Notes under the pieces: generated by a model
Databases searched by the model: none
Seen by the model: only the letters and a program-made list of their open reading frames with translations
What the model was told of the DNA's origin: nothing
Assembly: GCF_009557235.1 (NCBI RefSeq)
Contig: NZ_CP045650.1
Location: forward strand, 900,001-932,000
Origin: Acinetobacter wanghuae
GTDB taxonomy: Bacteria > Pseudomonadota > Gammaproteobacteria > Pseudomonadales > Moraxellaceae
Direction of reading: 5' to 3'
DNA length: 32,000 nucleotides
Program-made: the position numbers and the translations under genes
Shown here: positions 5,623 through 32,000 of the stretch, one piece after another
Layout of the letters: each line of letters starts with the position of its first letter
Position numbering within the stretch: the stretch's first letter is position 1

Positions 5623-6210
5623 TCAACGTTTAAAACGCAAAGATGTTTCGGGTGTAATCAAGGCATCTAATGGCTGATCCCATGGTTGACGAATAAATGT
5701 TTGCTGCACAAGTTGAAAATGATGTGCGATCCCGAGTCGATAAGGACGATAAGGCGCGCTTGCTAGGGTACGATCATAATAACCACCACCCATTCCAATA
5801 CGTGAGCCTAAAGTATCACATGCCAATAACGGTAGAATTAACAGGTCTAAATGAGAAACGTGTAAACCCCGTGTTGCCATGGCTTGCTGCATACCTAAAC
5901 GATGATAGGCAAAACGTCGATTTCGGTATTGTTGTTTTGAAATTTCCACCCAAACAAGACGTTGATTCATATTACAAATTAAAGGTAAAAAAACTTTTTT
6001 ATGTTGTTTAAAACAATGTTCGATGATCGCTTGAGTTTGAATTTCTCCGAAGGCGTCAAGATAGATTCCAATCGCATGACTCTGCTTAAAAATAGCATTT
6101 TCTCTTAATTGATGAAGTACTTTTGTAGCCGATTGCTTTTGCTGAAATGTAGACAATTTACGACGTTGCTTACGTATTTTTTTTCTTAGCGTTTGGAAAG
6201 TTTCAGACAT
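5623..6210 (-). CDS. ygfA: 5-formyltetrahydrofolate cyclo-ligase
   Basis: ORF with the family motif GMGGGYYDR near the C-terminus and the right size (~195 aa). The ATG at 6210 (MSETFQ...) is more likely than the TTG at 6225. No clear Shine-Dalgarno sequence precedes either. Confidence 0.8.
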   Translation of the reverse strand: MSETFQTLRKKIRKQRRKLSTFQQKQSATKVLHQLRENAIFKQSHAIGIYLDAFGEIQTQAIIEHCFKQHKKVFLPLICNMNQRLVWVEISKQQYRNRRFAYHRLGMQQAMATRGLHVSHLDLLILPLLACDTLGSRIGMGGGYYDRTLASAPYRPYRLGIAHHFQLVQQTFIRQPWDQPLDALITPETSLRFKR

Positions 6211-6793
6211 AGTTAGGTGTAACAAGGAGTTTATTTTAGTGTAACGCTTCTTTGATTAAATTCAATTCTGACAAATTAAAATTAGACTCAAATAATTATA
6301 TATAAAACTTAAAATTAATTAGAAAATCTTAATTATAGTTTGCGAAAGTATTCGGTTGTTACCTGCAGATTCTATCCTGAATATCAGTTATCACCAGTTA
6401 GAAATTAGAGGTTAAGTACTTATACGCATATCGCATACATATATTACAAATAGATAATACTAAAAATAGGATATTGATTAATATAACTACATAAATCAAC
6501 TATATCATCATTTTTTTATGATTATTAAAATATTGAAAAATAAATATTTATGGTTAAAACATCATCATTTTTAATCAATTTGGTTAAATTCTAATTAATT
6601 GTATTAATTGTGTGAAAAACCCACCAATTAGCTAGATATACAATTAAAAGAAAAAGAGATAATTATACGTGGTTCATATTTAATAGTGTGATAAGTATCA
6701 CGTTATTTATTTTAAGGCATGAGTATAAAGTTAATCGGATTTTATACATTTAATATTTTCTAAACTTTTAAGTTTATTGGGCGGATTTTTGAT

Positions 6794-8086: not shown

Positions 8087-8660
8087 ATCAACGGTAGATG
8101 GCCTAGAGGAAGCTCAACTGATCTTGAATCAGCAATCAAAGAAGCTGAAACAGCACAAGCTGATAAAGAAGCAGCACAAGTTGAAGCAGAACAAGCTCTT
8201 GATCAAGCAAAAGACGCGCTAGAACAAGCAATTACTGATGCTGAATCACAACTTGACAGCTTAACTGGTGCAGAAAAAGATGCAGCAGAGCAAGCGATTG
8301 CAGATGCAACAGATGCCTTAACAGCAGAAGATGCAACCGTAGATAGCCTAGAGCCAGCACAAACTGAGCTTGAATCAGCGATCAAAGATGCTGAAACAGC
8401 ACAAGCTGATAAAGACACTGCGCAAGTGGAAGCAGAACAAGCATTAGATGAAGCAAAAGATGCGCTAGAACAAGCGATTGTCGATGCTGAATCAACACTT
8501 GACAGCTTAACTGGTGCAGAAAAAGGTGCAGCAGAGCAAGCGATTGAAGATGCACAAAATGCATTGGCAGACGAAACAGCAACAGCTGAAGATCTAGCAC
8601 AAGCTCAAAAAGACCTTGACGTAGCAATCAAAGAAGCTGAAACAGCACAAGCTGATAAAG
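7205..8660 (+). repeat. Coding tandem repeat family A: ~6 units of 246 bp (82 aa)
   Basis: The anchor GAAGCAAAAGATGC (caagc variant in some copies) recurs at 7223, 7469, 7715, 7961, 8204 and 8450, a spacing of 246 bp with one 243-bp unit. Unit: EAKDALEQAI.DAESTLDSLTGAEKEAAEQAI.DA..AL...ATV..L..AQ.DL..AIKEAETAQADKDAAQVEAEQALD. Confidence 0.9.
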
Positions 8661-14169: not shown

Positions 14170-14799
14170 GCAGAGGCACAAGCACAAGCTGAAGCAGCAG
14201 CAAAAGCGGAATCAGAAGCACTAGAAGCAGCGAAAGCAGCATTGGGTAAAGCAATTCAAGCTGCAGAAGATGCGTTAAGTACAACAGCTAAGCCACAATT
14301 GGATGGCGATGAACTTAAAGCTGTGTTGATTGAAAAAGCCAAAGCTGAAGTGGCATTTGAAAATGAAGCTTTAACTGCAGCGCAATTAAAAACTGCAGCA
14401 GATACATTAAATAAAGTTGTAGAAGATGCAGTGAATGCTGAATCTGTGGAAGATGCAGCAGAGGCACAAGCACAAGCTGAAGCAGCAGCAAAAGCGGAAT
14501 CAGAAGCACTAGAAGCAGCGAAAGCAGCATTGGGTAAAGCAATTCAAGCTGCAGAAGATGCGTTAAGTACAACAGCTAAGCCACAATTGGATGGTGATGA
14601 ACTTAAAGCTGTGTTGATTGAAAAAGCCAAAGCTGAAGTGGCATTTGAAAATGAAGCTTTAACTGCAGCGCAATTAAAAACTGCAGCAGATACATTAAAT
14701 AAAGTTGTAGAAGATGCAGTGAATGCTGAATCTGTGGAAGATGCAGCAGAGGCACAGCACAAGCTGAAGCAGCAGCAAAAGCGGAATCAGAAGCACTAG
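12973..14799 (+). CDS. Adhesin internal fragment as assembled (clean family B units plus the first family C units)
   Basis: 608-aa ORF from the track. It ends because of a single missing base near 14757, where ggcacagcacaagctg replaces ggcacaagcacaagctg of the other copies. Confidence 0.6.
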   Translation: MQVAADTLVKVVEDAVKAEQVEDAAADKLAAEEAQALAEAKAALTDAIAKADAALTSELPRLDGAEREAVIAEKAKAEAALDNASLTADELQVAADTLVKVVEDAVKAEQVEDAAEAAAAADKLAAEEAQALAEAKAALTDAIAKADAALTSELPRLDGTEREAVLVEKAKAEAALDNASLTADELQVAADTLVKVVEDAVKAEQVEDAAEAAAAADKLAAEEAQALAEAKAALTDAIAKADAALTSELPRLDGAEREAVIAEKAKAEAALDNASLTADELQVAADTLVKVVEDAVNAESVEDAAEAAAAADKLAAEEAQALAEAKAALTDAIAKADAALTSELPRLDGAEREAVIAEKAKAEAALDNASLTADELQVAADTLVKVVEDAVNAESVEDAAEAQAQAEAAAKAESEALEAAKAALGKAIQAAEDALSTTAKPQLDGDELKAVLIEKAKAEVAFENEALTAAQLKTAADTLNKVVEDAVNAESVEDAAEAQAQAEAAAKAESEALEAAKAALGKAIQAAEDALSTTAKPQLDGDELKAVLIEKAKAEVAFENEALTAAQLKTAADTLNKVVEDAVNAESVEDAAEAQHKLKQQQKRNQKH

Positions 14800-15600
14800 A
14801 AGCAGCGAAAGCAGCATTGGGTAAAGCAATTCAAGCTGCAGAAGATGCGTTAAGTACAACAGCTAAGCCACAATTGGATGGTGATGAACTTAAAGCTGTG
14901 TTGATTGAAAAAGCCAAAGCTGAAGTGGCATTTGAAAATGAAGCTTTAACTGCAGCGCAATTAAAAACTGCAGCAGATACATTAAATAAAGTTGTAGAAG
15001 ATGCAGTGAATGCTGAATCTGTGGAAGATGCAGCAGAGGCACAAGCACAAGCTGAAGCAGCAGCAAAAGCGGAATCAGAAGCACTAGAAGCAGCGAAAGC
15101 AGCATTGGGTAAAGCAATTCAAGCTGCAGAAGATGCGTTAAGTACAACAGCTAAGCCACAATTGGATGGTGATGAACTTAAAGCTGTGTTGATTGAAAAA
15201 GCCAAAGCTGAAGTGGCATTTGAAAATGAAGCTTTAACTGCAGCGCAATTAAAAACTGCAGCAGATACATTAAATAAAGTTGTAGAAGATGCAGTGAATG
15301 CTGAATCTGTGGAAGATGCAGCAGAGGCACAAGCACAAGCTGAAGCAGCAGCAAAAGCGGAATCAGAAGCACTAGAAGCAGCGAAAGCAGCATTGGGTAA
15401 AGCAATTCAAGCTGCAGAAGATGCGTTAAGTACAACAGCTAAGCCACAATTGGATGGCGATGAACTTAAAGCTGTGTTGATTGAAAAAGCCAAAGCTGAA
15501 GTGGCATTTGAAAATGAAGCTTTAACTGCAGCGCAATTAAAAACTGCAGCAGATACATTAAATAAAGTTGTAGAAGATGCAGTGAATGCTGAATCTGCGG
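14170..15600 (+). repeat. Coding tandem repeat family C: 5 units of 288 bp (96 aa)
   Basis: The anchor GCAGATACATTAAATAAAG recurs at 14398, 14686, 14973, 15261 and 15549. Unit: AQAQAEAAAKAESEALEAAKAALGKAIQAAEDALSTTAKPQLDGDELKAVLIEKAKAEVAFENEALTAAQLKTAADTLNKVVEDAVNAESVEDAAE. The copies are almost identical at the DNA level. Confidence 0.9.
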
Positions 15601-18600
15601 AAGATTTAGCATTAGCAAAAGCTCAATTACAACAACTATTGGCAAAAGCAGTTTTAGCTTTAGATGATTCAACATTAGAAATGGATCGAGATAAGCTAAT
15701 AGTTGAAACAGCTTTAGCGCAACAACTACTGGAAGCTAATTCGTCAACAGTTGAAGAAATTCAAAGTGCCTCTAAAAACTTAGAAACATTACTATCGAAT
15801 ATTTCTAATCCTTATCTTGGTGATGTAACCATTGCGGATGATGGATTGTCAATATCTGGTCAATTGACACCGGGTAGTAAAGTAGTCATTGAATATGAGG
15901 GCAATTCACAAGTTGTAACGAGTAATCTTGATGATGGTCGTTTCAATATCATATTGACCGCACCACTTGTAGATGGTCAAGAAGTAATAGTTACAGAGTT
16001 AAACGGTAAAGAAGTTCTAGGAACAACAGATCTTATCTATGAAGATGGTGCGGTTGTTGTTGGAGAGACGATTATCGCCGATGATGGTAAATCAGTATTA
16101 GTACAAGGTGAACCGGGTGCTTCTGTAGAAATTAAACATGAGGGTAAACTTATCGGTCATGGTGTAATGAGCAAAGATGGCACAGTTAATATTGTATTAG
16201 ATAAAGCATTGCTAAACGGTAATCAAATCACTTTATCTTATGAAGATATTAAAGGTAATACAGCAACTAATACTGCAGTCTATACAGATAATATAGATCC
16301 AGACTTGAATGAAGTTGAGTTTGTACTAGTTGATGAAACTAATTTATCTATTTACGATGATACGCTTGCAAATCAAGTCGTAGAGTTTGAGTTACTTAAC
16401 TTACCATTGGATTCTCAACAAGTTAAAGTCTTTGTTGGTGGAGTTCAGGCGACCAACTACGGTGATATTTATGGTAAATGGACAGTTACATTACCAAGTG
16501 ACTTGATCATGAAGCAAGATGGTAGCTTGCCAGTTGTTATTTCAGTCACTGAAACATCAGGAAATAGCACACAAGATTATCAGTTAGATAACTTAAGTTA
16601 TGAAATACTATCTTCATATCCAACAGATATTCTTGAACATGAAATATTTGCACGAGTAGACATCACACCACAGTCTAGTCCACTCTTTATTTCAGGTGAT
16701 AATCCATACAAAAACTTAGAGGCTAAAGTTGTTGGACTCACCTTGGGTGGTGTTCTATCTGCTGATGTAATTCAAACGCTTAATGGTATTGATTTCAATA
16801 TCGAAGAGGGTAAAACGTGGAGTTTCGACTTCGATTATACCTTGCATAGCTTATTAGGTGTCAGCGCAATCAACGTTGTGCTTTATAAAGAGCAAGTGAA
16901 TGCAGATGGAACAATCTCTTGGGTATCTGAAACTGTCGGTGGCGGTGTTGTCGGTGGCGGTCTATGGATTGGGTCTACAGAAACTCTTCACATTTCTAAT
17001 TTGACTTCGGGTACCTATAAGTTAGTCGCAGGTACAGGTAAAGCAGGAATTAGTGTTCTTGGTGCGATTTCTACAGAAATGAAAAATATTGAAGTAGAAA
17101 CTTGGACAGATCCTGCGTCAAATATATATGAGGCTTTAGCGTATACAGGTAATGCTTTCCTTGATTTATTAGAAAAGACGAATGATCTAAACTTCAATCC
17201 TACAAATAATAACGGGCTTACCATTACCAAGGTCTACTTCGGTAAAGAAAATCCTAATTTAACTGTAGTGGCAGAAGAAGGTTATACTGAAGTAGTAGGT
17301 CAGTACGGATCATTATTCGTTGCTGCAAATGGTGATTATTATTACCAAGCGAAAGCAGAAGCGAAGGGTTTAGGTCTATATGATGAACCATTTACATTAG
17401 TGTATGGTAATGATCGTGACCATGATGGCAAAGCTGACCAAAATGGGACTAAAGTAATTACAGGTGGTATTCAATTAACGGTGGGGATTGATAGCCCAGA
17501 TATGGACTATGAGTGGAACAAAAATGAAATTCCTGTTGGAACCACTTATGCGCTAGATGATGTAAATCAAGTAGATGTTGCATTAGGTAATAATTATTCT
17601 ACTGATGTACACGATAGCGCTAATTTACTTGAATCTAAAAAACAAATTGGATCGTATACTCAAGATAAGCAGTATTCGACAGTAGCTTACTCAAGTGATG
17701 CGCATGGTTTTAAATTTACTGTCAAAGATCATACACTTGAAAAATTAAGTAATCCCACTTTTGAAATTACATCTCTAGACAGTAAGCCATATAGCTACGT
17801 TATTTATAAATTAAATCAACTTAATACAAGTGAGACTGTGTTTGAAATTGTTGATCAAGGAGTGATTGAGGACAAACAAAGCTTTGGTAAAAATTTAATT
17901 TTAAGTGGTGGGGATTATGAAGTCATTATGTACAATGGTTCTTCAACACCTGACTTCAAGGTAAATTTTGATAAAGAATTAATTTCACAAGTAATTCACT
18001 CAGAGGTTGACCTAAAATCTTACAAATCATTTAACTTTAATTTTGATTTAAATCCAAACGAGTATGGTGTAATTGAAATTCAGCAAGTTGATATTGATAC
18101 AATTCTTACTAATTCTTCAACGAATTGGACACTTTACAAGAATGTCAACGGTATTGAAACTAAACTTAGTTCTGGAGTTGTTAAGGACTTAGATGGTTTA
18201 AATATTTTTGAATGGGATAACAAAGGCAAAAGTGAATATCTAAGTAGTGGTATTTATCGATTAGAATTTGATAAAGATATCCAAACACTATCAGTTGTTA
18301 GTAAAGCCGTTAATCAATATGAGTTTAGTATTCTTAAAGAAGAAGGGACCTATACTCAAGCCAAAGGTGTATTGCTCGCTAATGATAAATACGATGTAAG
18401 AACCGTTAAGCTTCAAATTGAAGTGAACGGTGAAATGCAGCGTGTGAACACGGTTCCGCTGTCAACTACTGATGGTGTAACAACTGTTCAAGGTGAGTTT
18501 GGTCAACTTCAACTTTGGTCAAATGGTTACTATATCTATACACCTGATGTAAACAAAATTGGCATTAATGCAATTGGTCAGTCAGATAAATTTGACTATG

Positions 18601-19133
18601 CATTTACAGATCTCACAGGACAAATGAAAGAGGCAACACTGACTATTAATATTGGTGGTATAGGTGCTGTGATCAAACCTGCTGGTGAAACTGACATCCT
18701 TTTAGAAGGTACAGCCAATAGCGAAATGTTGGTAGCTAACGAATTCAATAATGTAATTCATGGTAATGGTGGTTCAGATACCTTAGTTTACAAATTATTG
18801 AATGAAGCAAGTGTAACTGGTGGTAATGGTCAAGATATTTGGACTGATTTTGCAGTAGGTAATGTCATAGAAGATGATGCTGATGCGATTAATGTGCAAG
18901 AATTACTCATTGATCAAACAGTTGCTAATATTAATGACTTTATTGAAGTACGTTATGATTATCAAAAGGATGCAGTAACTGTATCTATTGACCGAGATGG
19001 TGCAGGGACTGGATATGAACAAACTGATCTAGTTACTCTAACGGACTTTAAGAAACAGAATGCGGATGTAGTATTCACATCGAATGATGATCTTCTCAAT
19101 CTGTTAATTGCAAATGGTCAAATTATTTATTAA
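14817..19133 (+). CDS. Adhesin C-terminal fragment as assembled (last family C repeats, Ig-like modules, large non-repeat beta-rich region, T1SS signal)
   Basis: 1438-aa uninterrupted ORF ending at TAA 19131-19133, followed by a strong terminator. The true frame is open upstream of the nominal start, so this is not an independent gene. Confidence 0.75.
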   Translation: MGKAIQAAEDALSTTAKPQLDGDELKAVLIEKAKAEVAFENEALTAAQLKTAADTLNKVVEDAVNAESVEDAAEAQAQAEAAAKAESEALEAAKAALGKAIQAAEDALSTTAKPQLDGDELKAVLIEKAKAEVAFENEALTAAQLKTAADTLNKVVEDAVNAESVEDAAEAQAQAEAAAKAESEALEAAKAALGKAIQAAEDALSTTAKPQLDGDELKAVLIEKAKAEVAFENEALTAAQLKTAADTLNKVVEDAVNAESAEDLALAKAQLQQLLAKAVLALDDSTLEMDRDKLIVETALAQQLLEANSSTVEEIQSASKNLETLLSNISNPYLGDVTIADDGLSISGQLTPGSKVVIEYEGNSQVVTSNLDDGRFNIILTAPLVDGQEVIVTELNGKEVLGTTDLIYEDGAVVVGETIIADDGKSVLVQGEPGASVEIKHEGKLIGHGVMSKDGTVNIVLDKALLNGNQITLSYEDIKGNTATNTAVYTDNIDPDLNEVEFVLVDETNLSIYDDTLANQVVEFELLNLPLDSQQVKVFVGGVQATNYGDIYGKWTVTLPSDLIMKQDGSLPVVISVTETSGNSTQDYQLDNLSYEILSSYPTDILEHEIFARVDITPQSSPLFISGDNPYKNLEAKVVGLTLGGVLSADVIQTLNGIDFNIEEGKTWSFDFDYTLHSLLGVSAINVVLYKEQVNADGTISWVSETVGGGVVGGGLWIGSTETLHISNLTSGTYKLVAGTGKAGISVLGAISTEMKNIEVETWTDPASNIYEALAYTGNAFLDLLEKTNDLNFNPTNNNGLTITKVYFGKENPNLTVVAEEGYTEVVGQYGSLFVAANGDYYYQAKAEAKGLGLYDEPFTLVYGNDRDHDGKADQNGTKVITGGIQLTVGIDSPDMDYEWNKNEIPVGTTYALDDVNQVDVALGNNYSTDVHDSANLLESKKQIGSYTQDKQYSTVAYSSDAHGFKFTVKDHTLEKLSNPTFEITSLDSKPYSYVIYKLNQLNTSETVFEIVDQGVIEDKQSFGKNLILSGGDYEVIMYNGSSTPDFKVNFDKELISQVIHSEVDLKSYKSFNFNFDLNPNEYGVIEIQQVDIDTILTNSSTNWTLYKNVNGIETKLSSGVVKDLDGLNIFEWDNKGKSEYLSSGIYRLEFDKDIQTLSVVSKAVNQYEFSILKEEGTYTQAKGVLLANDKYDVRTVKLQIEVNGEMQRVNTVPLSTTDGVTTVQGEFGQLQLWSNGYYIYTPDVNKIGINAIGQSDKFDYAFTDLTGQMKEATLTINIGGIGAVIKPAGETDILLEGTANSEMLVANEFNNVIHGNGGSDTLVYKLLNEASVTGGNGQDIWTDFAVGNVIEDDADAINVQELLIDQTVANINDFIEVRYDYQKDAVTVSIDRDGAGTGYEQTDLVTLTDFKKQNADVVFTSNDDLLNLLIANGQIIY
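15820..16290 (+). other. Two tandem Ig-like (bacterial Ig / BapA-type) modules inside the adhesin
   Basis: Two paralogous ~75-80 aa segments. The first is DVTIADDGLSISGQLTPGSKVVIEYEGNSQVVTSNLDDGRFNIILTAPLVDGQEVIVTEL. The second is ETIIADDGKSVLVQGEPGASVEIKHEGKLIGHGVMSKDGTVNIVLDKALLNGNQITLSY. The pattern is typical of Ig-like adhesin modules. The domain family was not verified. Confidence 0.5.
18700..19130 (+). other. T1SS C-terminal secretion target domain (degenerate RTX-like GG repeats plus C-terminal signal)
   Basis: The sequence ...LEGTANSEMLV...VIHGNGGSDTLVYKL...VTGGNGQDIWTDFAVGN...DAINVQELLID...VTVSIDRDGAGTGYEQTDLVTLTDF... resembles the VC_A0849-type T1SS C-terminal target domain as I remember it. 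Confidence 0.65.
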
Positions 19134-23063: not shown

Positions 23064-24311
23064 ATGATAAACAATAAGATGATGATACAGTTAACGGCTT
23101 TGGTTATGGGGCTATCCGCTTGCAGTATTGGGTCGATTCATGCCGCTTCAGCAACCCCAATACAACCTGCAAATACGCAACAAGTCTTTTTTGTCGGAAA
23201 TAACTGGGATGGTACAGTCACGGTGATTCGATCTGGCGGTGATTTTTCTAAAGTAGGTGTCATTAATATGATTCCTGATCGAAAAGAACGCTTAAAAGAA
23301 ATTCATCTAAATCCAATTCAGCTGATTGCCTACACCTATATTCAAGCGACTGCTGGACAGGGTAATGATCAGTTGGTCGATGATATGTATTCAACTCCAG
23401 ATGGTCAGTCGGTTGTGGCATCTCGTCCAAGTTTTGCCGATGTTGTATCGATTAATATTAAGACAGGAAAAATAAACTGGCGTAGCAAGGTTGAAGGTTT
23501 CCGTGCTGATCATATGGCAGTCTCACCAGATGGTCAGCGTGTGGCTGTATCGGCATCCTCAGGTAATGTCGTTCATGTGTTAGATATCAATACAGGGAAG
23601 GAATTGGGACGTTTTCCAACAGGCGACAAACCACATGAAAATATTTACTTTGCGGGCGGGAATAAAATCTTAAATTCGTCGATTGGTAATGTTGAAACAC
23701 CATTAGATGCATCTTGGCAAGATTTCACCAAGGGTAAGCGCATGATCACGATTGCAGATGCCAATAATTATAGCGTGTTAAAGAAAATTGATTTTCGTCC
23801 TGCACTAGACAAGTTTGGTCGTAAAGATTTATCTAATTCAGTACGCCCAATGGTCTTTAGCAATGATGAAACCAAACTGTATGCACAAGTTTCATTTTTC
23901 AATGGCTTGGTCGAATACGACTTAATCAATGATAAAGTGACACGTATTGGTCAATTACCGGGCAGCACTAAAATTCCGAAAGATCGCACCAAATGGGTTA
24001 ATGACTCACGTCATCATGGTTTATCTATCAGCGCTGATGGAGAAAAACTCTGTGTTGCAGGCACAATGGATGACTATGCCACCATTGTCGATCGTAAAAC
24101 CCTGCAAGCTGGAAAATTGATTCCCGCAGGAAAACCCTATTGGGCAACCCGTAGTCCAGATGGCAAAAGCTGCTTAATTTCAGAAAGTGATACGGATGTT
24201 GTGACCGTGATTGATTTTGCTACAGGCAATAAAGTGTTGAGCGTGCCTGTTGGAAATCATCCACAACGCGTACGTTTGGGTTATGCACCAGCAGATTGGT
24301 CTACAAAATAA
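23064..24311 (+). CDS. Secreted or lipid-anchored YncE-like beta-propeller protein
   Basis: 415 aa. GAGGA lies 7 nt upstream of the ATG. The signal peptide has a possible lipobox (VMGLSAC). Repeated motifs of the type VSPDG(Q/K).V.VS....V.V.D are typical of YncE/lactonase-type 7-bladed propellers. Confidence 0.65.
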   Translation: MINNKMMIQLTALVMGLSACSIGSIHAASATPIQPANTQQVFFVGNNWDGTVTVIRSGGDFSKVGVINMIPDRKERLKEIHLNPIQLIAYTYIQATAGQGNDQLVDDMYSTPDGQSVVASRPSFADVVSINIKTGKINWRSKVEGFRADHMAVSPDGQRVAVSASSGNVVHVLDINTGKELGRFPTGDKPHENIYFAGGNKILNSSIGNVETPLDASWQDFTKGKRMITIADANNYSVLKKIDFRPALDKFGRKDLSNSVRPMVFSNDETKLYAQVSFFNGLVEYDLINDKVTRIGQLPGSTKIPKDRTKWVNDSRHHGLSISADGEKLCVAGTMDDYATIVDRKTLQAGKLIPAGKPYWATRSPDGKSCLISESDTDVVTVIDFATGNKVLSVPVGNHPQRVRLGYAPADWSTK

Positions 24312-24371
24312 TAATTGAAAGAAGATACTGATTGAGCAATTCATCAGTATCTTTTAAACAAAAGAAAAATT

Positions 24372-24830
24372 ATGTCTAAGTTTTCTAAAATAAGTTTTTT
24401 GTTTATAGCGATGATTCTGAGTTTGGCAGCCTTGGTATTTTTGCTGAAACCAAATAATGCTGAACTGCATCAAAGCAATTCAACTCATCCAATCGTATTG
24501 AAGCAAAACGTATCTCAACTTAATCCACAAACCACGACAGTGGAAATATCTTCGGATACTCAAAAAGATGAAGCATTCTTAGAGCAGCGAACAAGATTGT
24601 ATGAATTTTTAGGTGAACTTTCGTTTGATATGATTGAAGGGCAAAAGCCAGATTTAAGACAAGTCACAGACATGATGAGATCGCAAAATGAATTGGTCAG
24701 ACAAGGGCTTGTCGAGCCGCAAGAAGCATTGAATTACTTAGAATTTTTGAAACAGATTTTTCCAGAAATGGAAACTGAATTGGTCGCATTTATTGAAGAA
24801 ATAAATGCTGAAAATGATTTGAAAAAATAA
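24372..24830 (+). CDS. Hypothetical protein with an N-terminal membrane anchor and an acidic helical C-terminal part
   Basis: 152-aa ORF. The hydrophobic segment is ISFLFIAMILSLAALVFLL. I recognise no family. Its stop codon directly abuts the ssrS-derived repeat. Confidence 0.5.
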   Translation: MSKFSKISFLFIAMILSLAALVFLLKPNNAELHQSNSTHPIVLKQNVSQLNPQTTTVEISSDTQKDEAFLEQRTRLYEFLGELSFDMIEGQKPDLRQVTDMMRSQNELVRQGLVEPQEALNYLEFLKQIFPEMETELVAFIEEINAENDLKK

Positions 24831-24888
24831 ACACTCCGACGATGCCGCTGCAATATTATTACCCTGAACCCGATGAATTTAAAGATGA
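24829..24888 (-). repeat. Displaced partial copy of the 3'-terminal 60 nt of the 6S RNA gene (candidate attR-type island boundary)
   Basis: Hand alignment with 31874-31933 gives 52/60 identical positions, with perfect blocks of 26 nt (aaacactccgacgatgccgctgcaat) and 18 nt (ttaccctgaacccgatga). Both copies are in the same orientation. Similarity ends abruptly at 24889. Confidence 0.8.
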
Positions 24889-24969
24889 TTACATCAATTA
24901 AGCAACATTAAAATGTATTGAACAATAAAAATAATTCTATAATGCATCTTAATTTCTTTAAAAATAAAA

Positions 24970-24993
24970 AGCCGATCCCAAGATCAGCTTTTT
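24970..24993 (-). terminator. Terminator of the minus-strand PepSY operon (hairpin with one mismatch, T-run on the minus strand)
   Basis: The minus strand reads aaaaagctgatcttgggatcggcttttta, about 24 nt after the stop at 25017. Confidence 0.65.
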
Positions 24994-25016
24994 ATTGCAT
25001 ATTAAAACTCAATCAC

Positions 25017-25355
25017 TTAAATACTGCACATGATTCCAGTGATGAGTGCAACCACCGCACACGCAATGACAATAAGTTTAATTTTGTTTTGCGCGTAGCT
25101 CAGACTTAGTCCTACCAAAATGGCAGCAAAACTCAAGCTACCGACCCAATAACTGATCATATTACTAAGTGCACCAGTGATAGCACAAAGTCCTAAAGCA
25201 ACGGCTAAAATGATCCAACCCAAAATTGTGGCAAGTCGGGTTTTAGGGGCAGCTAATATTTGTCCAAATATTTGTTTTTGATGTTTTTGCATAGATGCTG
25301 CTAGTGCAAAGAATCCAAGCGAGGTAATAGACCAAATCAGTAAAAAGAACATCAT
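25017..25355 (-). CDS. Small polytopic membrane protein (of the kind annotated DUF3325 next to PepSY-TM genes)
   Basis: 112 aa, 3-4 hydrophobic helices. Its start overlaps the PepSY stop (ATGA). The DUF name is from memory of this conserved gene trio and is unverified. Confidence 0.6.
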   Translation of the reverse strand: MMFFLLIWSITSLGFFALAASMQKHQKQIFGQILAAPKTRLATILGWIILAVALGLCAITGALSNMISYWVGSLSFAAILVGLSLSYAQNKIKLIVIACAVVALITGIMCSI

Positions 25356-27202
25356 GATACAGACTCCTCTATCGCCACTTTACCTTTCTTCGTAGCCAAG
25401 CCTTTATGACTTTTCACTCGTTTGAATGCAAATAAGAAGATGAGTGCCATGACCCACATTGCAAGATCAAAAGAGGCAATCATCCATTGACCATTCGTTA
25501 TGGTATTCCAAAGGGCTTGCCCACCTGTTAAGACATTTACAATGGGGAGGAGTGCAAAAGCAATCGTTGCAAAGGCTAAAAGTTCTAACCATGCTTGACG
25601 ATGATTTCGGATAATTGCATAAACCAATACCAATGCCCAGACGATAAAGAAGCTTCGGATTTCCCAATTTAGACGCATCGCCATATCCGCAGGAATGAAA
25701 CGATTGGCGTAGAAATATGCAGCACATGCGATCGGTAAACCGATAATGGCGGCAATGTTTGTGACTTCCACCAGACGGTAACCAAATGATTTATAGCCTT
25801 GCTTCTGCTGTTGTGGCGCACGTTTGATACACCATAAAATCAAGCCTGTTGCAATCATTAAGGTGCCCACTACACCTGACATAAACAGTAACCAACGTAA
25901 GGCTAAGTCAACGCCACGTGCTTCATGCAACGAGGTAAAGACGTTATAAATGCCATTGGCGACAGAAGGGGTTTTGAATACAGTTTGATCGGTCTTCAAT
26001 TCACCATTTACGCCATTGAACGCTAAGCTTGGGTAAACATTACGATAGGCAACACTGACACCATTTAGCGCTTTCAGCTCGATTTCTGCTTTACTCGTAT
26101 TTGGTTTAATAATGGTGATGGTTGCGACTTCATTTTTAGGCCATTCTTTTTGCGCCGTTGCAAAAATCGGTTCGAAATCTGTCAATGCTGCAGGGCGTTC
26201 ACGACGACCTTCGTCACGACCACGTCTGCCTTCACCGTCACCACGTACATTCATAGCAGCATGTTCGTTTTTTCCACGTGGGCGACCTTCACCTTTAGAA
26301 CGTTCTTGACGACCTTCTGCATGATCACCGCGTGCTTGCATATTCCCACGTTCAGCGTGACCTTCGCTATTACGTAAGCCACGTTCTTCGCCGTCACCAC
26401 GCGCAGACATGCCACCGCGTTCATCACGACCTTCCTTCGATTCAGCTTTGTTGCCATTGTCTTGAATCAGGCTTTTACGTTGCTCTTGTAAAAATGCACC
26501 GCGATTCTCATAAATCTGGTTGACCCCCCAAGGCATGATCGTAAATAGAAGTAATAATAAACCACTGAAAGTAATCATGATATGGAAGGGGAGTGCAAAT
26601 ACAGCAGTCGCATTATGTGCATCGAGCCATGAGCGTTGCCCCTTACCAGGGCGGAAGGTGAAGAAATCTTTAAAAATTTTCTTATGGGTAATGACACCAC
26701 TAATGATGGCAACCAACATGAGTAAAGTTGCGATACCCACAATCCAGCGTGCCCACATGCGCGGTAAGCCATACAATTCAAAATGAAAACGATACAAGAA
26801 GCTACCGCCACGTGTTTCGCGAGCTTCTAATACTTCACCTGTTGCACTATCAAGGGTAATTCGCGTGCCACCGCGACGTGCACGTGGGTCTTCGTCGACA
26901 CCACGCACACTAATTGTTGTCACATTTTGACGAGAATTGGGGAGTTGAATTGACCAACTGCCTGCATCGGCATGATGTTGTTGTAAGTAGTCTAATGCAA
27001 CACGGGTTTGTTCAATTTGAGAGGGTTGAGGCACAGATTGATGAAATTCTGGCTTCATCCATGTACTAATTTCATTTTGGAAAAAGCTTAAAGTGCCTGT
27101 TAAAAAGATGGCATACAACAGCCAACCTAAAATTAGACTTGCCCATGTATGTAGCCATGACATCGATTGGCGTGGACCTTCTGGTTTTGCATCGGGTCTC
27201 AT
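25352..27202 (-). CDS. PepSY-associated transmembrane protein (PiuB/FoxB-like putative ferric-siderophore reductase family) with an Arg/Gly/Glu-rich insertion
   Basis: 616 aa. The N-terminal WLHTWASLILGWLLYAIFLTGTLSFF is the typical PepSY-TM helix motif, and several more TM helices follow. It sits next to a TonB-dependent receptor and Fur boxes. Confidence 0.75.
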   Translation of the reverse strand: MRPDAKPEGPRQSMSWLHTWASLILGWLLYAIFLTGTLSFFQNEISTWMKPEFHQSVPQPSQIEQTRVALDYLQQHHADAGSWSIQLPNSRQNVTTISVRGVDEDPRARRGGTRITLDSATGEVLEARETRGGSFLYRFHFELYGLPRMWARWIVGIATLLMLVAIISGVITHKKIFKDFFTFRPGKGQRSWLDAHNATAVFALPFHIMITFSGLLLLLFTIMPWGVNQIYENRGAFLQEQRKSLIQDNGNKAESKEGRDERGGMSARGDGEERGLRNSEGHAERGNMQARGDHAEGRQERSKGEGRPRGKNEHAAMNVRGDGEGRRGRDEGRRERPAALTDFEPIFATAQKEWPKNEVATITIIKPNTSKAEIELKALNGVSVAYRNVYPSLAFNGVNGELKTDQTVFKTPSVANGIYNVFTSLHEARGVDLALRWLLFMSGVVGTLMIATGLILWCIKRAPQQQKQGYKSFGYRLVEVTNIAAIIGLPIACAAYFYANRFIPADMAMRLNWEIRSFFIVWALVLVYAIIRNHRQAWLELLAFATIAFALLPIVNVLTGGQALWNTITNGQWMIASFDLAMWVMALIFLFAFKRVKSHKGLATKKGKVAIEESVS

Positions 27203-27203
27203 A

Positions 27204-27560
27204 TTATCGTCCTAAAAAGCGGTAGATGATGTAGAACAAAACACATGGAATCATGATGCCTAAACTTGCTTTTAATGTTTTATTCACCATAAATACCCAA
27301 ATAAATGCACAGGCTTGCAAGGTAAAAGCTATTAATGTCGCAGACATCGCTGCACTCGTACCAAAATCAGAAAATAATTGTGCAATTACAATGGCAACAA
27401 GGGATGCCAATATATACCCACCTAAAGCTGCTAATAGAAAACGATAAAAAATCATGAAACGATAAGACATTATTTTTGGCTTATATTTAGTTTCGGACGA
27501 TGTTTTAGATGTAAGAACCTGATCAGCGGCTACAACATCCATATTCGGACTACTCATCAT
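27204..27560 (-). CDS. Small membrane protein, first gene of the PepSY operon (DUF3649-like)
   Basis: The ORF track starts at a TTG at 27578. The ATG at 27560 has GGAG 10 nt upstream. There are two or three hydrophobic helices. Its stop lies 1 nt from the PepSY ATG (TAATATG). Confidence 0.55.
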   Translation of the reverse strand: MMSSPNMDVVAADQVLTSKTSSETKYKPKIMSYRFMIFYRFLLAALGGYILASLVAIVIAQLFSDFGTSAAMSATLIAFTLQACAFIWVFMVNKTLKASLGIMIPCVLFYIIYRFLGR

Positions 27561-27600
27561 TGAAAATTCGCTCCACAACTATTGGGAATTTTATTGTTGC

Positions 27601-27639
27601 GAATGATAACAATTATTATTTATATTTTGAATCATTATC
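27601..27639. promoter_or_regulatory. Fur box pair upstream of the minus-strand PepSY operon
   Basis: AATGATAACAATTATT (27602-27617) matches AATGATAATCATTATC of the Fur consensus GATAATGATAATCATTATC at 13/16 positions. TGAATCATTATC (27628-27639) matches the consensus 3' half. Confidence 0.7.
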
Positions 27640-27772
27640 TTAAAATATTATTTTATGAGCATGTGAGATAGTTAATTATTAATTAACTCATTGTTTATAA
27701 ACTAAAATAAATCAGAAATAGAGTTTTAAAAAACACATATATGAAGAAAAATTTAGCAATCCACGCCTCTAC

Positions 27773-27794
27773 ATTAATGATAATAATTATCATT
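27773..27794. promoter_or_regulatory. Fur box upstream of the TonB-dependent receptor gene
   Basis: attAATGATAATAATTATC (27773-27791) matches the 19-bp Fur consensus at 16/19 positions, and the core 16-mer at 15/16. It lies about 85 nt upstream of the ATG at 27877. Confidence 0.8.
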
Positions 27795-27876
27795 TGCTAT
27801 TGAATTCTCATTTGTTTTGACTACAATGAGCCAAAATCTACATATTTACTCCATAATTATGGATGGGAAATTTATA

Positions 27877-30048
27877 ATGAATAGCCGTTTTTTGAAATCA
27901 ACATTGGCTTTTGCTGTACTTACAGCAATGGGTTTACCTACTCAAGCACAAGAACAAACAGCAAAGCTAGATACGATTGTGGTCACAACGGCAGGTGGAT
28001 ACGAACAGAATATTGCAGATGCTGCAGCAACGATATCGGTGATTACAGCCGAAGAACTTCAAAAAAAATCATATAGTGATGTCACGGATGCCTTAAAAAA
28101 TGTACCTGGTGTATTTGTACAGGGTGGTGGTACAAACCAAACTGTTTCTATTCGTGGTATGGGCTCAGCATATACACTATTTTTAATTGATGGTCGTCCT
28201 ATGAATGATGGAAGTCTGTTGACAACCAACGGCGGTATTCAAGGTGCATCGGTTAACTTCTTACCACCCATTGAGTCGATTGAGCGTATTGAAATTATTC
28301 GTGGCCCATCGTCTTCACTTTATGGTTCAGATGCCATGGGTGGTGTGATCAATATCATCACGAAGAAACATCAAGATCGTTTGACTGCAAGTATTCGTAC
28401 CGAATATATCAAAGCGGATAAGTCCAATGATGTGAACAATGATGCAACCAATACCAGCCTTTATGTCAATGCACCGTTAATTGATAACTTGTTGTCTTTA
28501 CAAGTGACGGCAGGTCTTCAAACGATTGATGAAAGTTCACTGCAAAAGAACACTGCTGAAACGGGTGAAAGTGAGCCTGATTTCCAAAAAACAAACATCG
28601 GAACCAAGTTTGTATATACCCCGGATGATAAAAATACCATCACAGCTGAATATAAACGTACGCAACAAGAGCGTACCCATAACCCCGGTAAAAGTTATAC
28701 GAAGTACGTTTCTGCCACAGGTTCTAAAGTTGACATAGGGGGTGAAGACTTTATTTTATCTAATAATAACTATTATCCCGCTTTTGATACGGGTGAAAAG
28801 GATAAAAATGGAAATGCGATTTATCAATCTGATGTAGTGCCAAATACACGTACATATTCTGAGCTTGAAAAAAATAGCTATAGCCTGACCCATGATGGTG
28901 ATTACGATAATTTAAAACTTACGTCATATATTCAGTATGATAAAGACGAAAATAATGCAATTACAGGCCGTACAGTGAATGGCATTACCAATCCAGGCGG
29001 TATTTTATTTGAAACTTTAACGGCTAACACTCAAGGGACTTATTTCTTTGATCAGCATACTTTAACCGTGGGTGGTCGTTACTTAAAAGAAAACTTAGAA
29101 GATGGTACATCTAACCAAAATGTCGAAATGGCAGGTCAGGTCACCAAGATGGATCGTTACCAATGGTCGTTATTTGCTGAAGATACATGGAGTGTAACGG
29201 ACAAACTAGCACTGACGCTCAGTGGTCGTTTAGATGAAAACGAATTCTTTGGAGATAACTTCAGTCCTAAAGCTTATGCCGTGTATAAAGCCACAGACAG
29301 CTTTACCTTTAAAGGCGGGGTGATCTCTGGATATAAAGCACCCAGTCTGCGTAATTCATCGCCTGAATATATGTTGAACTCAATGGGTGGGGCAATCATG
29401 CCAAATCCAGATTTAAAACCTGAAACAAGCCTAACCTACGAAACAGGCTTTGCTTATGAAAATCAAGATTTAGGTCTACTCGCGAGTTTGATGTTCTACC
29501 AAACCGACTTTAAAGACAAAATTACCCGTTCGTCACGTATGCAAGGGAGTCAAGACGCGGACAGCGATTTCTATAAGGAACATCCTGAGCTACCCTACAA
29601 TGCCAATGGTTATACCTATAACTATAACGTGGATGAAGCACAAATTCGTGGCATTGAACTCACCACAGATTATCAAATCACGGACAATGTGAAATATCGT
29701 CATTCGTATACATATACCAACAGTGAGCAAAAGTCTGGTCAGTATGAAGGCAAACCATTAAATGATATCCCTAAGCATATGTTTAATGCAGGGCTAGATT
29801 GGGATGTAAATGACAAATTGCTGTTATGGAGCCAACTGAACTATCGTGGTAAGACAGTCGGGAATACATCCGACGTACAAACCCCTGAATATACTTTTGT
29901 GGACGTAGGCGCAGTCTATAAGCACGACGAAAAGCTTCAATTCTCAACAGGTATTTATAACCTGACCAATAAGAACGTCCTTGAAGATGGCAACTCGTGG
30001 GTATTGGACGGTCGACGATATAATTTCGCTTTAAATTATAAATTCTAA
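27877..30048 (+). CDS. TonB-dependent siderophore/iron receptor
   Basis: MNSRFLKSTLAFAVLTAMGLPTQAQE is a signal peptide. It has a TonB box LDTIVVTT, plug motifs (IRGMGS..., LIDGRPM, IEIIRGPSSSLYGSDAMGGVINIIT) and a C-terminal ...YNFALNYKF with terminal Phe. I prefer the start at ATG 27877 to the TTG at 27817. Confidence 0.9.
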   Translation: MNSRFLKSTLAFAVLTAMGLPTQAQEQTAKLDTIVVTTAGGYEQNIADAAATISVITAEELQKKSYSDVTDALKNVPGVFVQGGGTNQTVSIRGMGSAYTLFLIDGRPMNDGSLLTTNGGIQGASVNFLPPIESIERIEIIRGPSSSLYGSDAMGGVINIITKKHQDRLTASIRTEYIKADKSNDVNNDATNTSLYVNAPLIDNLLSLQVTAGLQTIDESSLQKNTAETGESEPDFQKTNIGTKFVYTPDDKNTITAEYKRTQQERTHNPGKSYTKYVSATGSKVDIGGEDFILSNNNYYPAFDTGEKDKNGNAIYQSDVVPNTRTYSELEKNSYSLTHDGDYDNLKLTSYIQYDKDENNAITGRTVNGITNPGGILFETLTANTQGTYFFDQHTLTVGGRYLKENLEDGTSNQNVEMAGQVTKMDRYQWSLFAEDTWSVTDKLALTLSGRLDENEFFGDNFSPKAYAVYKATDSFTFKGGVISGYKAPSLRNSSPEYMLNSMGGAIMPNPDLKPETSLTYETGFAYENQDLGLLASLMFYQTDFKDKITRSSRMQGSQDADSDFYKEHPELPYNANGYTYNYNVDEAQIRGIELTTDYQITDNVKYRHSYTYTNSEQKSGQYEGKPLNDIPKHMFNAGLDWDVNDKLLLWSQLNYRGKTVGNTSDVQTPEYTFVDVGAVYKHDEKLQFSTGIYNLTNKNVLEDGNSWVLDGRRYNFALNYKF

Positions 30049-30052
30049 GGAA

Positions 30053-30074
30053 ATAGGGCGAAAGCCCTATTTTT
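30053..30074 (+). terminator. Rho-independent terminator after the receptor gene
   Basis: Stem ATAGGGC/GCCCTAT with a GAAA loop, then TTTT, immediately after the TAA at 30046-30048. Confidence 0.8.
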
Positions 30075-30101
30075 AAATCGCTACAGTTCCAAAGGTGAAG
30101 T

Positions 30102-31391
30102 ATGAAAAGAAATCAGGGCTACGTCACTGATACCGTTTTTCCAGCATTCTTTTATAAGGAAATGCAACCTGAGTGGTTAAATACGATCACTCAGTTTTTA
30201 GGATTTAAAGGTGTCGATTTTACCGCTCCTTTTTCTTATTTAGAGTTAGCTTGCGGAACGGGTATCAATTTAATTGTCGCGGCAATGAATCATCCACAAA
30301 GTTACTTTGTAGGTGTAGATTTCAACTCGCAGCATATACGTGAGGCGCAAGCGTTCGCTGAGCAATTAGAGCTTAAAAACATAGCGTTTATTGAAGCGGA
30401 TTTTCAAACCTTTTATGAGTGCAATCAAACTCAGTTTGATTTTATTACGGTGCATGGCGCGTATTCGTGGGTCGCACCAATACAACAACAAGAAATTTTA
30501 GCCATAACGGCAAAATTCCTTAAATCACAGGGGATTTTTTATTTACATTATATGTGCTATCCAGGCTCGTTACATTTACAACCTGTACAAAAGTTATTTA
30601 ACTTAATTGATCAGCACGTGCCCACAGCATCTACTGAAAGTATTCAACTTGGAAAAGCCTTATTTAACGATTTGCATGAACATGGTGCCTTTGTTGATCA
30701 ACCACAAATGGAGGCATTGCTGAATACGTTGAACAATAGTTCTGACTATTTGACACATGAACTTCTCACCGATCACTGGCAACCTTTATATAGTGTCGAT
30801 GTTCATCAACAGGCACATCAATTAAGTGGCTTAACCTATATTGGAAGTGCAGAGCCGACTGAAAATTTGGACAGCATTAGTATTCCAAATGCGCTGCAAC
30901 CCATGGTGAGTAAAGTAAAAATACCTGAGCTAAAAGAATACTTAAAAGATCTGGCTCGAAATAGTAAACAACGCACCGACATTTACCAAAAACATCCGAT
31001 TCAACTTCAGCAAAATGAACATTTAGAAGTGCTGAAGCAAATGAAATTTGAATTAGTGCATTTAGGAGCAAACGCCAACGTTACAAAGTTCCAAACACCA
31101 ATTGGAGAGATGATTGCATCCGAAAAGTTGATCGAAAAAATGCTAACTGCCTTTGCCCATGAAAAACGGGGTTTTAACGACTTTATACAGTTAACAGAAT
31201 TTCAGCAGAATCCTATTTATTTAATTGAAACTTTATTCTTGCTGTTGAGTAATCAATATATTTATCCAGTGAAAAGTTCAGGAAATAAGAGAAATCAAAT
31301 TCATTCGGATCAATTTAATCAGTTTATGGAAGTAAAAAAAATTGCGTTAAGATTTAAAGAAAATTCACCCATTCCAATCTATGTCAGTTAA
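30102..31391 (+). CDS. Class I SAM-dependent methyltransferase with a long C-terminal extension
   Basis: 429 aa. SAM-binding motif I is YLELACGTGINLIV, with an acidic residue in VGVDFN and IEADF downstream. The ~250-aa C-terminal part is unassigned and may be the methyltransferase regulatory domain type. Confidence 0.7.
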   Translation: MKRNQGYVTDTVFPAFFYKEMQPEWLNTITQFLGFKGVDFTAPFSYLELACGTGINLIVAAMNHPQSYFVGVDFNSQHIREAQAFAEQLELKNIAFIEADFQTFYECNQTQFDFITVHGAYSWVAPIQQQEILAITAKFLKSQGIFYLHYMCYPGSLHLQPVQKLFNLIDQHVPTASTESIQLGKALFNDLHEHGAFVDQPQMEALLNTLNNSSDYLTHELLTDHWQPLYSVDVHQQAHQLSGLTYIGSAEPTENLDSISIPNALQPMVSKVKIPELKEYLKDLARNSKQRTDIYQKHPIQLQQNEHLEVLKQMKFELVHLGANANVTKFQTPIGEMIASEKLIEKMLTAFAHEKRGFNDFIQLTEFQQNPIYLIETLFLLLSNQYIYPVKSSGNKRNQIHSDQFNQFMEVKKIALRFKENSPIPIYVS

Positions 31392-31873
31392 CAAAAAAGT
31401 TTCTATAGGAGTGATGCTCATCGTTTAAGCGTTTTAGAACTAAAATAAGTGGTTATGCAGATTGTAGTCAATTCACAGGAATAAATAGGCTTAAATGTAT
31501 ATGCTCAATTTATTCCTATAGAGCAATTCTAAGGGAGGAGAGGCTAGGTCAAAAAATATCTATAGCTGATGGATATATAGAAAGTGCATTTACTCATATA
31601 TATAGCTTTGATCGAGTAACCATGACAGGCATGAGATTAAAATAGGACAATAGCTTTGTAGTGGTTTGAGGCTAGACATAATGAGAGCCAGCAAAGTAGA
31701 AAAAAGCGCTGACATTTATAGGAAATATTGAGTTATTTTTGAAACTTTCATTTTTCTATCAAGATAAGATTGATAGACCATTTTTGGGTATACATGGCGT
31801 ATACAAAGAGCTAAAAATGATTTGGCGGGGAATTTTGAAATTTTATTTGTGACGGTTAGAACACAATCATTAA

Positions 31874-32000
31874 AAACACTCCGACGATGCCGCTGCAATG
31901 TCGTTACCCTGAACCCGATGAGTTCAAGGTGGACGCGACGCATACTTGCTGGGTTTCCTGCACGAAGGCAGGCATACACTCTAAATATACAGAACACATC
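31874..32000 (-). ncRNA. ssrS: 6S RNA gene, 3' ~127 nt (5' end beyond the window edge)
   Basis: The minus strand reads ...GCGTCGCGTCCACCTTGAACTCATCGGGTTCAGGGTAACGACATTGCAGCGGCATCGTCGGAGTGTTT. This is collinear with the E. coli 6S RNA 3' part ...GCGACGACACAUUCACCUUGAACCAAGGGUUCAAGGGUUACAGCCUGCGGCGGCAUCUCGGAGAUU (from memory). An internal hairpin CCTGCCTTCGTGCAGG lies upstream. Confidence 0.8.

Follow-up and report, generated by a model that had tools for sequence, protein, structure and literature searches.

The DNA analyzed here, 32,000 nucleotides of the Acinetobacter wanghuae genome (contig NZ_CP045650.1, positions 900,001 to 932,000 of the forward strand, referred to below as the window), ends at its right edge within ssrS, the gene for 6S RNA. 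A second, displaced copy of the 3' end of this gene lies further to the left, directly after a gene for a 152-residue protein, and the two copies enclose a segment of about 7 kb that contains a cassette of iron-uptake genes. The cassette is conserved as a unit in a contig of another lineage (L129), and the DNA between it and either copy of the repeat has no counterpart there. The parts of this arrangement, from left to right, are as follows.

24829..24884: distal, decaying copy of the ssrS 3' end (putative attachment-site, or att, scar), which starts inside the stop codon of the 152-aa gene
24885..24949: junction DNA between scar and cassette, 65 nt, outside the cassette and not homologous to L129
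24950..31439: iron-uptake cassette as a conserved unit, collinear with L129
31440..31873: noncoding spacer between cassette and ssrS, 434 nt, with stops in all six frames and not homologous to L129
31874..31929, within ssrS: gene-proximal copy of the putative att repeat (last ~56 nt of 6S RNA)
31874..32000, minus strand: ssrS (6S RNA), 3' two-thirds, Rfam RF00013

The 6S RNA gene and its displaced 3' copy

The original prediction, made from the sequence of the window, had placed the 3' two-thirds of a 6S RNA gene on the minus strand at the right edge. The Rfam covariance model RF00013 matches 31874-32000(-) with 58.6 bits (E 2.4e-09), above the gathering score of 46.4, and bears this assignment out. 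The match corresponds to model positions 60–187, the 5' part of the gene being cut off by the end of the window. The terminal ~56–60 nt of ssrS recur once in the window, in the same orientation, at 24829-24884, or to 24888 if the full 60 nt are considered. The distal copy is identical to the genic copy at 50 of 56 positions over 24829-24884 and at 52 of 60 over the longer span, with perfect blocks of 26 and 18 nt, and seven of the eight mismatches in the 60-nt span are G/C in ssrS and A/T in the distal copy. A recount gave the same figures, for identities, blocks and the direction of the mismatches, as had been obtained from the original alignment by hand, and an automated repeat search paired 24829-24882 with 31874-31927 (54 nt, 91%).

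The repeat is confirmed as real, a chance match being excluded by shuffled sequences. The 24-mer ACACTCCGACGATGCCGCTGCAAT, with up to three mismatches allowed, has exactly two sites in the window, and none of 100 shuffles contained two matches. In local alignments of the 60-mer to both strands, the distal site scores 44, whereas the maximum elsewhere in the window and in the shuffles is 10–11. The same alignments revealed no third copy, either near ygfA, the gene that lies on the far left side of this interval, or anywhere else in the window.

The ssrS att site of Acinetobacter phages

The 3' end of ssrS is an established target of prophages in Acinetobacter baumannii. Copies of a 60-nt repeat named "N60," which overlaps ssrS, lie on both sides of the Vieuvirus prophage Phi19606; N60 is present as a single copy in strains without Phi19606 after loss of the phage, and in other A. 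baumannii strains other phages occupy the ssrS site (PMC8914354). According to a prophage survey in A. baumannii, the top three hotspots include "ssrS and a hypothetical protein" (PMC11998280). The original prediction knew of no description of ssrS as an integration target; these publications provide it. The Vieuvirus phages Ab1656-2 and phi9102 match the ssrS fragment of the window over only its 3' ~48 nt. In Ab1656-2, this segment is 155 nt from the gene for a 457-aa "recombinase," which carries the Phage_integrase (PF00589) and Arm-DNA-bind_3 (PF13356) domains and is therefore a tyrosine integrase.

A pattern spanning the core of the site identified 96 viral contigs in IMG/VR, all with the A. 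baumannii type of core and with at least three different phage arms; one of them, a contig of 52.9 kb (L044/L070), has the core at both ends. In all 96, the identity ends at AGTTCA. The limits of the repeat were compared in a four-way alignment of ssrS from the window, its distal copy, ssrS from a locus of A. baumannii type (L030), and the phage attachment site (attP) of Ab1656-2. Identity between phage and host extends from just past the RNA 3' end to ...AGTTCA, and the repeat of the window extends from the RNA 3' end to the homologous ...GAGTTCAA(G/A)G, such that the inner limits of the window repeat and of the block shared by attP and the bacterial site (attB) coincide to within ~4 nt. The core of the window differs from that of the A. 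baumannii phages in having GCAAT for GCAT and CACTCCGAC for TGCTCCGAA.

The agreement with the phage att site in position, in length (56–60 nt as compared with the published 60 nt), and in orientation is the main reason to regard the repeat as the footprint of an integrase and not as an accidental duplication, and it supports the original suggestion that the two copies are attL and attR sites of a tyrosine integrase. Like the Vieuvirus prophages at ssrS (Phi19606, Ab1656-2, and phi9102), the segment in the window is associated with the last ~60 nt of 6S, with a repeat of the same length in direct orientation, and with an intact gene at one end. The prophages differ from it in several respects. 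They are ~50 kb long and have a tyrosine integrase gene 155 nt from the core, as opposed to 7 kb and no integrase or phage gene in the window; their presence varies from strain to strain, and loss is possible, whereas the insertion in the window is fixed and decaying; and it is only the window segment that holds an iron-uptake cassette.

Degenerate genomic islands in tRNA and tmRNA genes present a comparable picture, with an intact small-RNA gene at one end, a displaced copy of its 3' part at the other, accessory cargo between the two, and mobility genes that have been lost; the difference is that the target here is the gene for 6S RNA. One metagenomic viral contig, L089 (IMGVR_UViG_3300011912_000008), combines within positions 1–90 the A. 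baumannii type of core with an outer flank and an arm that both differ, which hints at the use of the same att site in another lineage.

It seems fairly probable that the two ssrS 3' copies are the fossil attL/attR pair of an old, immobilized, integrase-less insertion with the cassette between them. This reading has two components, that the repeat was made by an integrase and that the cassette came with the element rather than later, and we infer both.

Contents, age, and decay of the repeat-bounded segment

The cassette consists of divergently arranged genes with a promoter region between them. The genes listed below are those named as cargo in the original prediction, and Pfam searches returned the expected families for all of them except the 124-aa open reading frame (ORF), which has no family.

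24960..24994: hairpin between an A-run and a T-run, read from the sequence and conserved in the window, L004, and L129
25017..25355, minus strand: DUF3325 small membrane protein (PF11804, E 2.5e-16)
25352..27202, minus strand: PepSY_TM inner-membrane protein (PF03929, E 3.5e-69)
27204..27578, minus strand: 124-aa ORF, first gene of the minus-strand operon, no Pfam family, L129 homologue 78.5% identical in amino acid sequence
27579..27816: divergent promoter region with Fur-box-like sites (consensus matches)
27817..30048, plus strand: TonB-dependent receptor (Pfam Plug and TonB_dep_Rec_b-barrel)
30102..31391, plus strand: S-adenosylmethionine (SAM)-dependent methyltransferase with a MethyTransf_Reg domain (Pfam)

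L129 is collinear with 24950-31439 of the window, with a nucleotide identity of 82.6% over 6520 nt. The encoded proteins are 94% (receptor), 87% (PepSY_TM), 78.5% (124-aa ORF), and 74% (methyltransferase) identical, and the DNA on both sides of the cassette in L129 is unrelated to the flanks in the window. No scar is present in the 304 nt to the left of the cassette in L129, a contig of only 7 kb. An A. wanghuae protein matches the methyltransferase with 100% identity, and the next homologues of the methyltransferase are 74%, 70%, and then ~50% identical and come mostly from Aliarcobacter; matches in Acinetobacter are few and scattered, giving a patchy distribution. This patchiness and the unrelated flanks in L129 suggest that the cassette is an accessory and exchangeable unit.

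Related contigs allow the history of the segment to be followed. Seventeen were available, mostly metagenome-assembled genomes (MAGs), with ~95% nucleotide identity to the window in genes. Mismatches between the window and the MAG lineage (L004) at fourfold degenerate sites amount to 5.9% in the genes for PepSY_TM, the 124-aa ORF, and the receptor as compared with 14.5% in neighboring genes (those for the luciferase-like, HAD, yncE-like, DUF3325, and methyltransferase proteins; p 2e-7), which suggests a more recent recombinational exchange of the cassette core. Searches for the cassette on plasmids and in phages gave only short and distant PepSY matches, which, like the lack of a shift in GC content, speaks against an accessory or foreign cargo. 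The cassette ends have no terminal repeats, transposase gene, or other insertion signature.

The junction DNA at 24885-24949 cannot be aligned with that of the related contigs. At 4480-4610 of L004, and at the same place in the 16 other relatives, the scar and the hairpin are separated by an additional ~110 nt that are richer in GC; the window has ~30 AT-rich nt at that place. The extra segment has no meaningful match in the phage collection. The inner flank of the scar was also compared with phage attP arms and gave a z score of 4.1 (0/500 shuffles) with one arm type, but because the sequence is AT-rich and of low complexity and 13 comparisons were made, this similarity was not relied on.

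Within 31392-31715, no ORF reaches 50 aa, and the only ORF in the list to overlap the spacer, 31716-31997(-), is mostly inside ssrS. With the integrase of Ab1656-2 as the query, tblastn gave a best E value of 2.9 in the whole window and 0.16 in the spacer searched alone, in accord with the ORF list and with the original observation that an integrase ORF is lacking. A tblastx comparison of the spacer with the fetched loci, among them the 96 viral contigs from IMG/VR, found no similarity. The original proposal that 31392-31873 might be a decayed integrase gene or an attP arm thus receives no backing, as the region resembles neither integrases nor prophage DNA; it is 91% identical to that of the relatives, which is about the neutral level.

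Several observations weigh against the interpretation of the segment as an integrase-mediated insertion that brought the cassette. The window has no integrase gene or recognizable remnant of one and no phage genes, and the window type of core, with the GCAAT variant, occurs in none of the 96 IMG/VR viral contigs. The base composition of 24889-31873, whose comparison with the flanks had been proposed as a check, is not distinct from theirs. An empty site, which had likewise been proposed as a sign of the insertion, was not encountered, and neither was another occupant, among the 17 related contigs, all of which have the scar. Finally, the homology of the cassette ends short of the repeats on both sides, and none of the known attP arms resembles its flanks, so a later replacement is possible; together with the unrelated flanks elsewhere, this means that the cassette is maybe not the original cargo.

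These last features are the basis of an alternative that differs from the favored reading only in how the cassette arrived. A Vieuvirus-like prophage would have made the repeat and would then have been mostly deleted, and the cassette would have entered the leftover DNA later by recombination. Such a history would account for the 65 and 434 nt of unrelated DNA that the cassette limits leave on the two sides, for the different flanks and lack of a nearby scar in L129, and for the lower divergence of the cassette core, and it is in keeping with the fact that all known occupants of the ssrS att site are ~50-kb prophages. However, neither of the leftover stretches of 65 and 434 nt significantly resembles any of the prophage loci or phage arms that were fetched, the cassette ends bear none of the insertion signatures that were looked for, and the small size of the L129 contig limits what its flanks can say. 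We regard this alternative as possible but on the whole unlikely.

Further searches concerned the distribution of the site. A scan of the genome collection with the 20-mer TCCGACGATGCCGCTGCAAT returned three chance matches in unrelated MAGs and none in Acinetobacter, and a metagenome scan with the alignment of the 152-aa protein found no further relatives. According to Rfam, no 6S RNA gene lies within 10 kb of the yncE-like gene in A. indicus, A. pseudolwoffii, and a close relative. The loci of these other species differ in gene order and hence do not represent empty sites.

In all 17 related contigs, the scar directly follows the 152-aa gene. The DUF3325 gene comes next in the 14 that are long enough, and ssrS is reached in two. 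The start of the scar coincides exactly with this gene's stop codon in the window and in the 17 relatives, and likewise in a more distant relative, L021, which ends 27 nt into ssrS-like sequence directly after its 145-aa gene. In the window, 6 of the 56 scar positions have departed from ssrS, as compared with 10 of 56 in the relatives, and only one of these changes (G to A, position 55) is shared; the relatives keep the ssrS base at five of the six positions that are changed in the window and have nine changes of their own, three of them inside the perfect 26-nt block of the window. The sequence TTACAT just past the repeat is common to the window and its relatives. Scars that are differently mutated and share one change point to a single ancestral event, after which a repeat that was at least 55/56 identical decayed independently in the two lineages. 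The original prediction had offered two accounts of the mismatch pattern, a crossover within the 26-nt identity block between diverged copies and later decay of the distal copy. The second stands. The first was rejected in favor of independent decay of an ancestral near-perfect repeat since the relatives have mutations elsewhere, including inside the 26-nt block, which is thus a chance survival and not the mark of a crossover.

Between the lineages, the scar is identical at 42 of 56 positions, whereas the 3'-terminal 60 nt of ssrS, including the gene-proximal copy, are identical at 60 of 60 in a comparison of the window with L004 and L011 (Fisher p 1.4e-5). Identity at fourfold degenerate sites between the window and the relatives is 0.90 overall, with values for single genes between 0.81 and 0.96, and the divergence of the scar has a binomial p of 0.001 against the mean rate at these sites and of 0.16 against that of the fastest genes. 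The scar evolves at least as fast as silent sites and is unconserved, which argues against a function of the distal copy. The insertion, as dated by these sequence comparisons, predates the split of the window lineage from the related MAG lineage.

L004, L011, and L021, which were assembled independently of one another, all stop within ssrS or a sequence like it, a pattern to be expected if the assembly of short reads is misled by the repeat. In L004, the final ~60 nt of ssrS carry several transversions, and the Rfam score falls to 29.8 bits; these are probably contig-end errors.

That the distal copy is instead a selected functional element, such as a 56-nt antisense sequence in the 3' untranslated region of the yncE/152-aa transcript, a terminator, or a protein-binding site, is very improbable. 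The exact and constant start at the stop codon and the perfect 26-nt and 18-nt blocks retained in the window would be in line with selection. Against it, the copy shows 14 differences in 56 nt between lineages with ~10% divergence at fourfold degenerate sites, and the genic copy has none; the substitutions in the distal copy are dispersed and for the most part from G/C to A/T; the blocks that are perfect in the window are mutated in the relatives; and a separate, conserved hairpin downstream is the likely terminator. A duplicate formed without an integrase, for example by local duplication or illegitimate recombination upon insertion of DNA beside ssrS, and with only a coincidental likeness to an att site, would suit the absence of an integrase and of any observed excision or empty-site polymorphism but is scarcely credible for a repeat whose one limit is the RNA 3' end, whose other limit falls within ~4 nt of the attP/attB limit of at least three A. 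baumannii phage arm types, and which, at 56–60 nt, equals the published N60 in length.

If the two copies are an attL/attR pair, the locus could have arisen as follows. An element with a tyrosine integrase of the Vieuvirus type, its attP carrying a copy of the ssrS 3' end, would have recombined with the chromosomal ssrS at the 3' terminus of the gene. This would have restored an intact ssrS at one end, and the second copy of its 3' end would have come to lie at the other, immediately behind the 152-aa gene. The arrangement in Ab1656-2 suggests that the integrase gene may have been located next to the gene-proximal copy, at the position of the present 434-nt spacer. The insertion would have become fixed before the window lineage and the related MAG lineage separated, and the integrase and any other mobility genes would have been lost later. 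Since then, the duplicate would have drifted at about the neutral rate or faster, with the genic copy under selection. What would now be left between the repeats is the 6.5-kb cassette, preceded by putative Fur boxes, and 65 and 434 nt of unassignable DNA.

Cassette genes and the ygfA-ssrS interval

As expected of a TonB-dependent iron-uptake module, a receptor with Plug and barrel domains and a PepSY_TM partner are present in the cassette by Pfam. Fur-box-like sites, scored against the consensus GATAATGATAATCATTATC, lie in the divergent promoter region at 27773-27797 (two overlapping sites, 16/19) and at 27599-27639 (two sites, 14/19). In the whole window, there are nine sites that score at least 14/19 as compared with 1.95 expected from shuffles. 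Judged from its gene content, the cassette probably imports a ferric siderophore via the receptor under putative Fur control. What is known of the PepSY_TM family suggests that this protein presumably releases the iron by reduction at the inner membrane.

The same set of DUF3325, PepSY_TM, small-ORF, and receptor genes is found in an iuc-like siderophore cluster of another Acinetobacter (L031). The set in the window is unlike this cluster in that it stands alone, without siderophore synthesis genes, is divergently arranged, and is coupled to the methyltransferase gene. The hairpin at 24960-24994, by its form and position, likely terminates transcription from both sides, that of the 152-aa gene and that of the PepSY operon; a simple terminator scan did not flag it. 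As the distal ssrS copy precedes this hairpin, the 3' untranslated region of the mRNA would carry 56 nt antisense to the 3' strand of 6S RNA.

The DNA beyond the scar is host DNA, and the genes that define it and the left border of the interval are the following.

23064..24830, plus strand: yncE-like beta-propeller gene and its 152-aa partner, host DNA beyond the scar
5623..6225, minus strand: ygfA (5-formyltetrahydrofolate cyclo-ligase, PF01812)

The yncE-like gene is 84–86% identical to its homologues in A. lwoffii, A. indicus, and A. pseudolwoffii. The yncE/152-aa pair is conserved in A. indicus and A. pseudolwoffii, where no ssrS-like sequence follows it. The left part of the window contains gdhA, a META-domain gene, ygiD, rlmH, lon, and ygfA, a run that is also found in A. 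indicus and in L030.

Usually ssrS lies between zapA and ygfA, with ygfA as its downstream neighbor. In L030, which is of A. baumannii type, lon and ygfA are followed by 1.3 kb with three small ORFs and then by ssrS and zapA; the att core is present once, and the locus serves as a reference for an empty site. The distance from ygfA to ssrS is 25.6 kb in the window as compared with 1.3 kb in L030. From ygfA to ssrS, the window has a BapA-like gene, thiM, a rhodanese gene, genes for a luciferase-like monooxygenase and a HAD hydrolase, the yncE/152-aa pair, the distal repeat, and the iron cassette. In A. indicus (L026), ygfA is directly followed by yncE, and no ssrS occurs within 10 kb. Across the genus, the stretch between ygfA and ssrS seems to vary.

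The BapA-like gene, at 6794-19133, encodes a giant repetitive surface protein (BapA_N, FIVAR, and Big_6 domains) and contains tandem repeats of ~285 nt. It is split into at least seven ORFs in different frames, and single-base indels separate otherwise identical repeat copies; the broken gene could be a pseudogene or the result of homopolymer sequencing errors. The records CAKLQF02... and CAKLQH02... (L030 and L031), filed as "Acinetobacter phage MD-2021a," are shotgun contigs of an Acinetobacter host and carry the host genes lon, ygfA, zapA, pepP, and ubiH and the siderophore cluster.

A broader possibility is that the whole 25.6-kb ygfA-ssrS interval was built by repeated integrase-mediated insertions at the 3' end of ssrS, each of which lost its mobility genes, with the 7-kb segment as the youngest layer. 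We consider this doubtful. If it is true, ssrS would be a long-term entry point for domesticated non-phage cargo, such as siderophore-uptake cassettes, in Acinetobacter species other than A. baumannii.

Although the target itself was known, the present analysis would extend the ssrS phage site of A. baumannii to the environmental species A. wanghuae, with iron-uptake genes aboard. It reveals no new mechanism, and it flags the ygfA-ssrS interval as a variable region in the genus. Provided that the two copies are indeed an attL/attR pair, the locus would be an example of an att site at a late stage, fixed and integrase-less, with the distal copy decaying and the genic copy intact, and a dated example of how accessory iron-uptake genes may end up permanently beside a conserved small-RNA gene.

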